A stretch of 58,197 nucleotides of DNA. Origin: Actinomycetota bacterium. GTDB lineage: Bacteria; Actinomycetota; Acidimicrobiia; Spongiisociales; UBA4744. Shown here piece by piece: positions 27,686 to 56,810 of the stretch. Within the stretch, counting starts at the first letter, position 1. Every line of letters begins with the position of its first letter. The notes under the pieces are model-generated. The model saw only the letters and a program-made list of their open reading frames with translations, made no database searches and had not been told where the DNA came from. Made by a program: the position numbers and the translations under genes. The stretch lies in assembly GCA_013152275.1 (NCBI GenBank), contig JAADGS010000021.1, forward strand, positions 1 to 58,197, read 5' to 3'.

Positions 27686-29176
27686 TTACGGGTAGTGGTC
27701 CGGCAGGTCGTTCTCGTACACGACCACATCACCGGGACCGAGCGTTCGTCGCACCCAGGCGACGGCCTCCTCCCGGGAGTCAACAACCCTAACGGACGGC
27801 ACGCCGTGCGATCCCTCCAACAGCGCCCGCCGGTTCGTGCGCCCGACGATCACGATGTCCGTCGCCTCTCTCGCGGCATGTTCGGCGAGACTTACATTCT
27901 CCGCATACTGCCGTCGGCCCAACTCCACGAGGCCGGGGGTGACGACGACGCGCCTTCCTCCGGGGGACGCATGGTGCCGCAACATCGAGAGGACCGCCCG
28001 TGCCCCTGTCGGATTCGCGTTGTAGGTGTCGTCGATGACGACCACGCCGCTCGGCGCGGTCGCCACCTGCCGGCGATGCGCCGGACGCTCCAGTGAGGCC
28101 AGATCTGCCGGGTCTGGTGTCATACCGAGCGCCACCAGCACTCCGACGGCGCATGCCACGTTTCCCGGGAATGCCTCCTCGTCGGAGATCGGACCGATGG
28201 CCCGACCATGGACATACACCGTCGAGTCCGGCCCGACATAGACGTCGGCCCGTGAAGAGTTCGAAGAGCATCGAATGACCTGCCTGCGCCCTTCCTCGGC
28301 ATCGGCAAGCTCCTCGAGTTGCGGATGATCGACGTTCAGCACCAATGCCCGCGAGCCATCGACGATCTCGGTTTTCGCCGAGGCGATGGCGTCGAGGGTA
28401 CCGAATCGTTCGAGATGGACGGGGCCGATGGCGGTGATCACCGAGACCGTCGGACGGATCCACTCACACAGCGCCCGAATCTCGCCTCGACCGTAGGTAC
28501 CCATCTCGGCGACGAAGATCTCGGTACCGGGCGCGAGCTGTTCATTGATGGAACGTGCCAGTCCCAAACGGTTGTTGAAGCTCGCAGGACTCACGACCAC
28601 CTGGCGGCGGTTCCGCAGAAGTCGACCGACATAGGCCTTCGTCGTCGTCTTGCCGAACGAGCCGGTAATCGCGACAACCGTCGGAGCGACCGAGACCAGG
28701 CGCCGTGAAGCCTCATCGACGAAGCGGGCACTGGATCGAGCCTCCAGCGGCGATCGCAACCACAACGCGGCATCGACGAGCAGAGGTATCACAGGCGCCA
28801 GCAGGACCGCCGCCAGTCCGGCACCACCGATGGCGAGCAGAAGGGCGAAGAGTGCGACGGCAGCCCCGGCCGTGCGACGTAGGCGGGGGGTCCATGCGAG
28901 TGGTGCAGTCCGACCGCGCACGCCGAGCCCGAGCGGAAAGAAGGCGATGATGGCCGCCGTTACGAGGCCCACCGGCCGCACCCAGATCGACCCGATCGCT
29001 CCGGCCAGCGCAAGCGTGAATCCGGCAAGGTTCACGGCACGGCTTCCCCACCACCGCACGGCGAATCGGACGACGGAACCGGGCAGGTAATGCTCACGCT
29101 GGGCCACACGTATCCAGCGCAGCATCGACACCACCGAGGCGACAACGGCCGCTGCGGATGTGAGAACGTCGATCAC
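27686..29176 (-). CDS. MurF-like Mur ligase with N-terminal membrane segments
   Basis: ITGSFGKTTTK, SFNN, EMG, DDTYNANP, ENDLPDHY. Confidence 0.85.
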   Translation of the reverse strand: MIDVLTSAAAVVASVVSMLRWIRVAQREHYLPGSVVRFAVRWWGSRAVNLAGFTLALAGAIGSIWVRPVGLVTAAIIAFFPLGLGVRGRTAPLAWTPRLRRTAGAAVALFALLLAIGGAGLAAVLLAPVIPLLVDAALWLRSPLEARSSARFVDEASRRLVSVAPTVVAITGSFGKTTTKAYVGRLLRNRRQVVVSPASFNNRLGLARSINEQLAPGTEIFVAEMGTYGRGEIRALCEWIRPTVSVITAIGPVHLERFGTLDAIASAKTEIVDGSRALVLNVDHPQLEELADAEEGRRQVIRCSSNSSRADVYVGPDSTVYVHGRAIGPISDEEAFPGNVACAVGVLVALGMTPDPADLASLERPAHRRQVATAPSGVVVIDDTYNANPTGARAVLSMLRHHASPGGRRVVVTPGLVELGRRQYAENVSLAEHAAREATDIVIVGRTNRRALLEGSHGVPSVRVVDSREEAVAWVRRTLGPGDVVVYENDLPDHYP

Positions 29177-32597: not shown

Positions 32598-32867
32598 TCA
32601 CACCAGGTCGACGACCCTTCCACTGGAAATGTCTACGACGAATTCCCGGCCACTTCTCGAATCTGCGATCCACGAGGCGAGCTGCTCGCCCTCGCGTCGA
32701 ACGACCCACCATGCATACTCTTGACGCGTCTGATGGGAAGCACGGGCGGCACGGGCGGCAAGAACCGCTTCGGCTCCGGTGAGAAACGACCCGATAGCCC
32801 TCTCGACGACCAAGCCCGTCGGCAGACCCGCGACCTCCTCTTCAATGTACTCGATGGCCTCGAACAC
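32598..32867 (-). CDS. Hypothetical 89-aa protein (paralog 1)
   Basis: AGGAG Shine-Dalgarno before GTG; about 60% identical to the neighbouring ORF, which supports coding status. Confidence 0.85.
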   Translation of the reverse strand: MFEAIEYIEEEVAGLPTGLVVERAIGSFLTGAEAVLAARAARASHQTRQEYAWWVVRREGEQLASWIADSRSGREFVVDISSGRVVDLV

Positions 32868-32984: not shown

Positions 32985-33254
32985 TCAGGAGAGATCGACG
33001 ATCTGCTCCTTCGAGAGGTCCATCACGAATTCACGACCGCTGCGGGAATCTGCGATCCACAAAGCGACTCGCTCACCCTGGCGCCGAACGATCCACCACG
33101 CGTACTCATGACGATCCGCGTAGGCATCACGCGCCGCCCTGGCGGCGGCGATGGCTTCCTTCTCGGCAGCAAACGTCCCGAGGTGTGTTTCGAGCGATAC
33201 GCCGGTCGGAAGCCCATCGACTTCTTCCTCTACGTATTGAACGGCTTCGTACAC
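32985..33254 (-). CDS. Hypothetical 89-aa protein (paralog 2)
   Basis: GAGGAG Shine-Dalgarno before GTG at 33254; aligns without gaps to paralog 1 (EYAWWxVRR, WIADSRSGREFV). Confidence 0.85.
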   Translation of the reverse strand: MYEAVQYVEEEVDGLPTGVSLETHLGTFAAEKEAIAAARAARDAYADRHEYAWWIVRRQGERVALWIADSRSGREFVMDLSKEQIVDLS

Positions 33255-33469
33255 GACCCTCTCCTCAACCAACACTCACCCTCATCAGGGTACCGTATCT
33301 GAACCGGGATGGCTCAGCTTTCGGGCGGGTTCCGTCATGTTCGCCACGGTCTCGACATGACTCATCGGATCCGCCTCCGCGAAGCGTACGGTCACTCCTC
33401 GTGCCCTTTCCCCGAAGCGACGGCGCAAGACACACGATGACGCCCATGTTTCCGGGATGTCCAAGCACA

Positions 33470-33625
33470 AGAAAACCCCGAGGGAGCTTCTGTCGAAACG
33501 TCCGCCCTCTCGGGGTTTCTGTCCCACTGGAACTCCGTTCCCCGAAAGAAACGGTCTCCCGATGGGAGCCCCAAGATGATCTCTCGACCGCCTCGGGTGC
33601 GCTACGAAGTTACCTCCATTGCGCA
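33470..33625 (-). ncRNA. Putative structured small RNA, copy A (~155 nt, four hairpins)
   Basis: Own promoter; hairpins capped by GUAA, GAGA and UUCG; G-U pairs work only on the minus strand; ends in a stem plus UUUUCU. Confidence 0.75.
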
Positions 33626-33630
33626 ACCCC

Positions 33631-33707
33631 ATTATTACCGCCGTCGGCCATCATCTGCAACCCAGAACCTTCTCCAGATTTCGCGACCACGAATCCGGAT
33701 TTCGCGA
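33631..33707 (-). promoter_or_regulatory. Promoter of RNA A: TCGCGA x2, -35 TTGCAG, -10 TAATAAT
   Basis: Boxes at 33681 and 33702; -35 at 33655-33660; -10 at 33631-33637. Confidence 0.7.
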
Positions 33708-33752
33708 CCGGACCCAGGTACCAGGAACGGCCGCGCAGCGGGCCAGGACGCG

Positions 33753-33908
33753 AGAAAACCCCGAGGGAGCTTCTGTCGAAACGTCGGCCCTCTCGGGGTT
33801 TCTGTCCCACTGGAACTCCGTTCCCCGAAAGAAACGGTCTCCCGATGGGAGCCCCAAGATGATCTCTCGACCTTCTCGGGTGCGCTACGAAGTTACCTCC
33901 ATTGCGCG
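33753..33908 (-). ncRNA. Putative structured small RNA, copy B (~155 nt)
   Basis: Copy of A offset by 283 bp, with 3 substitutions over 33753-33907; the fold is preserved. Confidence 0.75.
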
Positions 33909-33913
33909 ACCCC

Positions 33914-33990
33914 ATTATTACCGCCGTCGGCCACCGAACGCAACCCCGAATCCTGCCCGAATTTCGCGACCACGAACCCGAATTTCGCGA
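33914..33990 (-). promoter_or_regulatory. Promoter of RNA B: TCGCGA x2, -35 TTGCGT, -10 TAATAAT
   Basis: Boxes at 33964 and 33985; -35 at 33938-33943; -10 at 33914-33920. Confidence 0.7.
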
Positions 33991-34085
33991 CCACGACATC
34001 CACGACGCGAGAGAACCCCGAATCCTGCCCGAGCTTCGCGACCACGAACCCGGATTTCGCGACCATGACATCCACGACGCGAGAA
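33942..34085. repeat. 72-bp tandem duplication of the upstream TCGCGA box pair
   Basis: 33942-34013 versus 34014-34085, each starting AACCCCGAATCCTGCCCGA. Confidence 0.9.
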
Positions 34086-34495
34086 AACCCCGAAGGAGCC
34101 TCTGTCGAAACGTCAGCCCTCTCGGGGTTTCCCGTCCCGCCGAACCCGGTGTCGAAACACCGGACCGCCGGGCCCGAAGCCGGAAACCAACTCCGGGTGC
34201 CGCAGTCTGCGGTGTCCCACGAACCCTGAGGCCCGTCGGACCACTCTCGCCTTGGCAGAACCGAAGTCCAACCAAAGTCCGAGCGTCGCCCCACTCCGAG
34301 TCGAAACCCGAAGGAAGCCTCCCTCCGTCACCGGAAGGATCCGCTTCCCGATCTGACCGTGAAACCCGAAGGCTTCACGATACGCCTTCTCTCGAAGGAC
34401 GGCCCCTCTCGGGGCACCGACCGGAAAGTCGGCGGATTCGCCGTCCGGTCGCCCGGCCGGCTCACCCTTACTGCATCGAACGTCTCCAACACAGC
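34082..34495 (-). ncRNA. Putative long structured RNA C (~410 nt, about 12 stem-loops)
   Basis: Chain of hairpins with GNRA/UUCG loops on the minus strand; same 3' terminator module as A and B; own promoter. Confidence 0.75.
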
Positions 34496-34501
34496 AACGG
34501 C

Positions 34502-34577
34502 AACTTACGGAAGCCTCCATCAACATGCAAGCGCGAGGCCTGTCTGGTTTTCGCGATCACGAATCGAGTTTTCGCGA
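34502..34577 (-). promoter_or_regulatory. Promoter of RNA C: TCGCGA x2, -35 TTGCAT, 17 bp, -10 TAAGTT
   Basis: Boxes at 34551 and 34572; -35 at 34525-34530; -10 at 34502-34507. Confidence 0.7.
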
Positions 34578-34620: not shown

Positions 34621-35391
34621 ATGAGTCTCGAAACCCTCTCCCCAAGCAGGGCCGGCGATTTCAAAACGTGTCCCCAGCTGTTCAAGTTTCGCGCAATCGA
34701 CCGGCTTCCGGAACCGACCACCATCTACCAGGCACGAGGCACGACGACCCACCTCGCCTTGGAACGCCTCTACGACCTCCCTGCACCCGAGCGCACCGCA
34801 GAGCGGCTCTATGAGCTGTTTCGGCAGGCGTGGACCGAGCTGCGCGGCCATGAGGAGTACGCCGAACTGTTCGAGGACGGCGACGCCGAGCGCCGCTGGG
34901 GCATGGAGAGCATGGCCTTGCTCGGCAACTACTTCGCCCTCGAGGATCCGACCCGGATATCACCACTGCACCGGGAACTCAAGATGCTCGAGCAGCTCGA
35001 CGGCATGACCATTCGCGGCATCCTCGATCGAATCGACGAGACCGCCGACGGCGACCTCATCATCCTCGACTACAAGACCGGGAAAGCCCCCCCTGAGCGC
35101 TACGCCATGGAAGCGTTCTTCGCACTGAAGATCTACGCGCTCCTCATCCGCAAGCGAACGGGCCGCACGCCGATCGAGGTTCGTCTCCTCTATCTGAACG
35201 GACCCACCATGTACCGGCTCGATATCGACGATCGGAAACTCGATGCAGCGGAGAGTGCGGTCCGTGCACTGTGGGAGCGCATCGACCAGGCGATCGCCGA
35301 AGAACGGTTCCCGCCGAAGCGGGGACCGTTGTGCGACTGGTGCTCATTCAAGAATCGGTGCCCGGCGTGGGTGCAGCCACCGGAAGCCTGA
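34621..35391 (+). CDS. Stand-alone PD-(D/E)XK (RecB-family) nuclease with a 4-Cys Fe-S motif, similar to the actinobacterial Rv2119 family
   Basis: LSPSRAGDFKTCP...RGILDRID...ILDYKTG...LCDWCSFKNRCP. Confidence 0.88.
   Translation: MSLETLSPSRAGDFKTCPQLFKFRAIDRLPEPTTIYQARGTTTHLALERLYDLPAPERTAERLYELFRQAWTELRGHEEYAELFEDGDAERRWGMESMALLGNYFALEDPTRISPLHRELKMLEQLDGMTIRGILDRIDETADGDLIILDYKTGKAPPERYAMEAFFALKIYALLIRKRTGRTPIEVRLLYLNGPTMYRLDIDDRKLDAAESAVRALWERIDQAIAEERFPPKRGPLCDWCSFKNRCPAWVQPPEA

Positions 35392-56736: not shown

Positions 56737-56810
<74 letters not shown>

Follow-up and report, generated by a model that had tools for sequence, protein, structure and literature searches.

Introduction

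6S RNA is a single long rod with a central bubble. Ms1 and CoRP, of about 300 and 516 nt, are RNA-polymerase-binding RNAs of actinobacteria (PMC9130861, PMC11077062). According to the accessible portions of these papers, Ms1 adjoins genes for a HAD-IB hydrolase and an oxidoreductase (PMC9130861), and CoRP has tRNA-Gln/Glu flanks and occurs only in Corynebacterium (PMC11077062). The accessible text of PMC9130861 nowhere names Acidimicrobiia, and that of PMC11077062 proposes that each species has one abundant RNA-polymerase-binding RNA, often unrecognisable by sequence or of a new type. Yfr103 of marine picocyanobacteria is a multi-copy, extremely abundant RNA of unknown function, as described in the part of PMC5069720 available to us.

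Here, we report an array of three predicted structured RNA genes (A, B and C) in a 58,197-nt stretch of an actinobacterial genome, hereafter the window, and their relatives in the class Acidimicrobiia. Like Ms1 and CoRP, these are stand-alone intergenic structured actinobacterial RNAs at a fixed syntenic site, with an overlapping size range. They differ in being multi-copy, in having separate promoters, in joining an unchanging 3' module to a body that varies and in matching no model, and binding to RNA polymerase is hypothetical here. The array does not adjoin the genes that flank Ms1, and the only tRNA of the window lies at 56737. As with 6S RNA, the units stand alone and sometimes have paralogues, and the symmetric ~10x10 purine-rich loop of an 85-nt form is loosely bubble-like; however, the units are hairpin chains rather than one rod. 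Compared by description and not by sequence, they share with Yfr103 the multi-copy structured ncRNA and a conserved upstream site (-29 to -58 in Yfr103), whereas Yfr103 belongs to another phylum, its paralogues have one size (290-328 nt) and its abundance has been shown (PMC5069720, accessible part). None of the motifs reported here occurs in the one supplement of that paper that was searched.

Results

Three structured units lie in tandem on the minus strand

The original prediction placed three minus-strand units in the window, and repeat and folding analysis found them at the positions given in Table 1. A and B form a 240-nt direct repeat (93% identity, spacing 283), and a 60-nt 3' segment is common to all three units (87-93%). 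Unit A folds at -81.7 kcal/mol (z -6.43), a value that none of 200 shuffles equalled, and the plus strand of its locus reaches a z of only -1.24; for unit C the values are -7.78 on the minus strand vs -2.02 on the plus strand. These scores confirm the minus strand as the structured one. The four helices described for A and B were recovered in the fold of A, the one of the two that was folded.

Table 1. Features of the array and its surroundings. Positions refer to the window unless another locus is named.
Feature	Position	Strand	Remarks
RNA gene A, short type, ~156 nt	33470..33625	-	four hairpins; ends predicted
RNA gene B, short type, 156 nt	33753..33908	-	recent duplicate of A
RNA gene C, long type, ~414 nt	34082..34495	-	string of GNRA/UUCG-capped hairpins; ends predicted
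Conserved 3' hairpin of A	33471..33519	-	CCCGAG stem, A·C mismatch, G·U pair, purine-rich internal loop, UUCG tip
Conserved 3' hairpin of B	33754..33802	-	
Conserved 3' hairpin of C	34083..34131	-	
Predicted sigma-A promoter of A	33631..33660	-	-35 TTGCAG, -10 TAATAAT
Predicted sigma-A promoter of B	33914..33943	-	-35 TTGCGT, -10 TAATAAT
Predicted sigma-A promoter of C	34502..34530	-	-35 TTGCAT, -10 TAAGTT
Two CGCGAAA boxes before promoter A	33679..33706	-	21 bp apart
Two CGCGAAA boxes before promoter B	33962..33989	-	
Two CGCGAAA boxes before promoter C	34549..34576	-	
Orphan CGCGAAA pair	34034..34061	-	in 72-nt duplication between C and B, no -35/-10 behind
RecB-like PD-(D/E)XK nuclease gene	34621..35391	+	divergent; context; syntenic marker
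96-aa ORF	32985..33275	-	no known family; context
89-aa paralogue of the 96-aa ORF	32598..32867	-	context
~70-nt leader of family f16	L349:2300-2400		equivalents in L351, L353, L355, L357, L358

Three differences between A and B had been claimed; these are internal as described, but a further one at 33625, at the 5' end, makes four in 33470-33627. The same prediction had allowed that the A/B pair might be an assembly artefact. Judged from the assembled sequences, this is unlikely because A and B differ at 4 RNA positions and at 17 of 85 upstream positions, and because other genera also have two short units. A model of the 3' hairpin (R1) detected no further copy in the source genome beyond the array.

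All three units finish in one ~50-nt hairpin. It had been taken for a shared terminator module, and it is indeed common to the three units, but it is more than a terminator, with a near-invariant sequence and a weak U-tract (longest run of at most 3 in 154 of 249 modules). In 152 of the 249 modules, YCGCG follows directly after this tract. A relaxed pattern that left the position free found the middle G of the 3' stem opposite U in 138 of 138 genome modules, and nine 3'-stem pairs are invariant across an alignment of 29 short units.

The units are very probably RNA genes with covarying homologues in the order

The units are almost certainly genuine RNA genes. Among 65 unique units, 456 loops were predicted for the sense strand, 358 of them GNRA or UNCG, vs 2 of 390 for the antisense strand; the energy model favours such loops, but equally on both strands. 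The sense strand was the more stable one in 64 of the 65. In the alignment of the 29 short units, both sides vary at 27 of 44 pairs and 94.6% of cells pair, a covariation that none of 500 shuffles reached, slid controls giving at most 15 pairs. The structure was drawn from the same alignment and the related sequences are non-independent, so that this covariation is strong, short of a formal test. The covarying homologues called for by the original prediction therefore exist, and its view of a co-regulated family of independently promoted structured RNAs that match nothing in Rfam holds at the level of sequence prediction. Small-peptide coding was rejected, as a frame of at least 15 codons with Shine-Dalgarno, start and stop occurs in only 27 of 175 units and any ATG in 27 of 67 short units, and no conserved reading frame was found across units. 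An rRNA or RNase P origin gave only short chance-level matches.

The same folds bear on whether the units are sibling base-pairing sRNAs under one regulator. Tandem paralogues with a common promoter box would suit such sRNAs, as would the purine-rich unpaired loops of the 85-nt form, but the conserved part is double-stranded and the longest unpaired run has a median of 5 nt (160 units of up to 450 nt), which makes this reading very unlikely. Sibling sRNAs or a protein-binding or sponge system had both been proposed; because of these short unpaired runs, protein binding fits better.

A DNA search gave matches in 38 of 61 relatives, and R1 matched 43 of 44 genomes of the same order, with weak matches in 4 of 106 genomes outside it. 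R1 was built from 57 modules, to which some of the searched same-order genomes contributed. An exact pattern recovered at least 124 metagenome stretches. Over 175 unique promoter-bounded units, the shortest measures 135 nt and the longest 668 nt, with lengths clustering at about 150, while the 3' stem stays, and there are up to 5 units per array, one genome region holding 6. Short copies are a median 99% alike within a locus (27 pairs) vs 67% between loci (793 pairs), as would follow from repeated duplication. Single short-type copies also lie away from the main site among varied neighbours (L042, L047-L050, L130-L133), one of them near integrase and aminoglycoside nucleotidyltransferase-like genes and one after rpoD.

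A paired CGCGAAA box precedes the promoters

The original prediction gave each unit its own sigma70-like promoter. Promoter-like sequence does precede each unit, but the paired CGCGAAA boxes and the orphan pair had been left undescribed: in every unit, two boxes 21 bp apart are followed, after 18 bp, by a TTG-type -35 and a -10. A generic promoter scan called no promoter. Within the array, the strict pattern CGCGAAA-N18-TTG-N20/21-TANNNT matches C only, and none of 100 shuffles matches; the TAATAAT of A and B is a slightly non-canonical -10 shared with some relatives. The gap between box and -35 is 18 bp in 106 of 110 promoters in a search that permitted 16-20 bp, with variable spacers, and the second box lies 20-21 bp farther upstream in about 95 of the 110. 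The strict pattern is present in 55 of 61 order genomes, a reversed control giving 4 matches in all. This tally and the 38 of 61 of the DNA search take in two unpublished genomes (G023 and G034), on which no other claim rests.

Furthermore, single boxes precede genes for a B12-type ribonucleotide reductase, DnaB, a whiB-like protein and sugar-binding proteins (names read from sequence), as well as an ORF with a LexA-type site, likewise read from sequence, and an ORF of ~100 aa. The source genome has 10 single-box sites vs 0 in the control. A CGCGAAA-like pair (one mismatch allowed), 19-20 bp apart, lies upstream of dnaA in 4 of 5 genomes (near 28040-28070 of G000:C75, and in L388, L389, L390, L392), the gene call resting on the DnaA C-terminal domain. 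CGCGAAA is not the DnaA box, as ordinary DnaA boxes are found at oriC, nor is it a stable-RNA promoter element, being found in 0 of 52 tRNA upstream regions and not at -60 of five rRNA operons. Its spread over varied genes and dnaA thus makes it a promoter element of these lineages, uncharacterised so far and tilted toward replication genes, to which an activator or the alpha subunit of RNA polymerase would bind. The alpha-subunit binding position is that of the UP elements of E. coli.

A conserved ~270-aa ORF of no known family has a promoter that joins the box with a LexA-type site between -35 and -10 (G000:C30:34719-35597, L303, L331, L336). This box and promoter also stand ahead of a G-rich tract in a ~120-bp repeat, which is scattered in at least nine copies (L310, L312-L315, L317 of G048) and is not this RNA. 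A single-box promoter further precedes a second small structured RNA, whose tip reads TTCGGGGAAGTG (L319, L330, L334); this tip has no exact match in the source genome.

A probable 85-nt form occurs in a family with small genomes

In family f16, 12 of 12 genomes have the strict promoter pattern, vs 5 of 94 other genomes of the class. The f16 genomes measure 0.9-1.1 Mb at about 34% GC, in agreement with the size and GC given in the accessible parts of PMC12008989 and PMC7771536 for Ca. Actinomarinales, with which f16 is likely identical. Every f16 site examined precedes a predicted RNA of ~85 nt (22 distinct sequences; z about -5.5 to -6.4 for the three tested), in which a short stem round a purine-rich loop and a GNRA hairpin are followed by the 3' hairpin. 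This RNA retains little beyond the 3' stem with its G·U pair, and the stem of its 3' hairpin lines up gap-free with that of the module found in the order; some families of the order also have this short-tipped form. In a joint 3'-hairpin alignment of 32 rows (A7, the 44 rows of A5 minus two G102:C5 hits and 10 others, G065's included), 9 of 15 pairs change on both sides and the G·U pair is kept in 30 rows; 27 of 500 shuffles reach the 9-pair count and 0 of 500 the covariation score. R1, built without the 85-nt form, missed the f16 copies, and in each f16 genome 1-3 copies were clear with a second model (R2), to which five f16 genomes contributed. Judged by promoter design and stem register, the 85-nt RNA is very probably homologous to the order RNAs. 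In f16, a conserved ~70-nt structured leader without Rfam match, possibly a riboswitch, lies between the 85-nt RNA and a TIM-barrel/decarboxylase operon (Table 1).

According to the accessible part of PMC7771536, intergenic gaps in Ca. Actinomarinales have a median of 2 bp, paralogues are few, and two-component, toxin-antitoxin and CRISPR systems are lacking. If f16 is that order, the lack of two-component systems argues against a response-regulator circuit. The reduced form also bears on a structural or storage role, in which the RNA would be an RNase-proof store of nucleotides or phosphate, or an RNA-only assembly kept together by GNRA loops that contact the conserved C-G stem. Loops that are nearly all GNRA or UUCG, a body of free length and the precedent of Yfr103 (PMC5069720, accessible part) would suit such a role; however, it has no need for an invariant G·U pair and mismatch, and the shortest form is kept by the most nutrient-limited lineage. 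We consider it improbable.

Candidates occur in other orders

R2 also gave weak matches in 21 of 94 further genomes of the class. Of 11 inspected matches from other orders, nine are units rich in hairpins that lie between genes and end in a related hairpin; two of these units lie near the same marker genes, and eight that were folded have z of -3.0 to -6.8 by crude shuffles. The remaining two inspected matches (G146, G139) and two G102:C5 matches look like chance hairpins. The hairpin-rich units span 220-460 nt and are mostly preceded by DnaA-box-like arrays (L393-L398, L118, L115); DnaA-box-like 9-mers number 2-6 upstream of 7 of 8 units vs about 0.4 expected. They match nothing in Rfam and are possible distant members only. 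Across the phylum, R2 gave weak candidate matches (E 8e-5 to 1e-3) in 7 of 139 genomes outside the class.

Neighbouring genes are not obligate partners

Neighbours of the arrays are the PD-(D/E)XK nuclease, PH/SHOCT or small ORFs, two paralogous ORFs of ~90 aa often standing in tandem near the array. Neither the Atlas nor Pfam/NCBIfam gave a family that explains the 96-aa ORF. Joint action of the RNAs with the nuclease or the small proteins beside them had been raised as a possibility. Within 4 kb of the array, the nuclease gene is present in 44 of 49 order genomes and the two small ORFs near it in 22 and 24, but none of these genes was found at 19 f16 loci (flanks of about 2-3 kb). Furthermore, 38 of 40 other-order genomes have the nuclease gene, and such an RNA lies within 1.5 kb of it at 1 of 30 loci examined. 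The nuclease gene marks the site and is no obligate partner.

The main locus beside the nuclease gene and some single copies elsewhere, among them the one near an integrase, would fit leaders or terminators acting in cis, repeats or mobile elements at the DNA level, or a guide RNA of the nuclease. We regard these readings as extremely unlikely: downstream genes vary, units are also convergent or aimed into other genes, the loops are RNA-specific with a strand bias, the other-order loci nearly all lack such an RNA beside the nuclease, and in viral sequences the pattern gave three plain hairpins without promoter box, then none. A CRISPR or type III antitoxin array was rejected because each unit has a separate promoter and there is neither an obligate neighbour nor a repeat-spacer layout.

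A DUF2642-like ORF of ~100 aa carries a single-box promoter in several genomes (G000:C28:3821-4105, L290:1587-1883). The ten top PDB matches of the AlphaFold model of the L290 protein (pLDDT 87.6) are without exception Hfq, with an rmsd of about 1 A across 55 residues; the phylum is said to lack Hfq. Together with one invariant hairpin per RNA and copy-number expansion, this protein would suit a decoy or cofactor for an RNA-binding protein other than RNA polymerase (a regulator, a ribonuclease or the Hfq/Sm-fold protein with the same box) that is bound at the 3' hairpin. However, no more than 23 of 44 order genomes match the ORF strongly, it was not found in 12 of 12 f16 genomes, and we rejected it as an obligate partner. 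The units resemble CsrB/RsmY in their hairpin chains, several paralogues and shared upstream activating site, but have no GGA-rich loops (GGA in only 23 of 1180), and CsrA was found in 1 of 6 genomes. Ro60/TROVE, the partner of bacterial Y RNA, was not found in the source genome. A decoy for such a protein is, on this evidence, somewhat unlikely.

The units match no family in Rfam

Rfam 15 gave no match to the units at the gathering score, the only match in the window being one tRNA, and at E up to 10 the window gave chance-level matches only. As predicted, neither Rfam nor ARAGORN models revealed an RNase P, tmRNA, SRP or 6S signature in the array, the RNase P RNA of the source genome lying on another contig. 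The ~85-nt RNAs likewise matched nothing in Rfam. The 6S model (RF00013) matched neither the units nor any of 101 genomes of the class, while positive controls matched. The Ms1 model (RF02566) did not match the units and nothing Ms1-like was found in the source genome; the class and phylum searches had no positive control at the cut-off, and Ms1 may lie elsewhere in the class. No description of the family was found in the literature searched; the 85-nt form could be among the RNAs of the marine surveys of 2009, of articles behind subscription or of supplements on bioRxiv. The RNA family is real, undescribed in that literature and absent from Rfam, and would belong among orphan or RNA-polymerase-binding structured RNAs.

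Discussion

A free body, an invariant distorted helix, scant single-stranded sequence, strong-looking promoters and gain of copies together suggest a stoichiometric protein binder, and the RNAs probably act through protein binding at the 3' hairpin. Each unit would be transcribed from its own strong sigma-A promoter, aided by an activator or the RNA-polymerase alpha subunit at boxes near -60 and -81. The 3' hairpin would serve both as transcript end and as protein-binding site, the variable 5' body as nuclease-resistant bulk, and extra copies would raise the RNA dose as expected for such a binder.

The partner may be RNA polymerase. By elimination and by analogy with 6S, Ms1 and CoRP elsewhere, we tentatively propose that the RNAs titrate this enzyme, with a probability of roughly 40%. 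It is favoured because CsrA and Ro60 were mostly not found, the Hfq-fold protein is patchy and 6S was not found, and because of the proposal in the accessible part of PMC11077062. Against titration of the polymerase, long and short units lack the rod and central bubble of 6S, and a range of 85-670 nt with up to 6 copies per genome region is unusual for RNA-polymerase-binding RNAs.

A bolder version, unlikely as a whole, would add these RNAs as a fourth class to those that bind RNA polymerase, with an origin ancestral to a large part of Acidimicrobiia. Their whole function would reside in one ~45-nt hairpin that tolerates bodies of 40-600 nt, with several copies even in 1-Mb streamlined ocean bacteria, and their dose would be tied to DNA replication through the box common to dnaA, dnaB and ribonucleotide reductase.

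A basic role is likely for an RNA kept in 43 of 44 order genomes and probably in several copies in genomes with 2-bp gaps and few paralogues (PMC7771536, accessible part). The 85-nt RNA, as a natural minimal form, would open this function to study in vitro with no need for a culture. Should RNA polymerase be the partner, the family would test the idea that each bacterium has its own abundant RNA-polymerase-binding RNA and would fill a gap in a class where 6S was not found.
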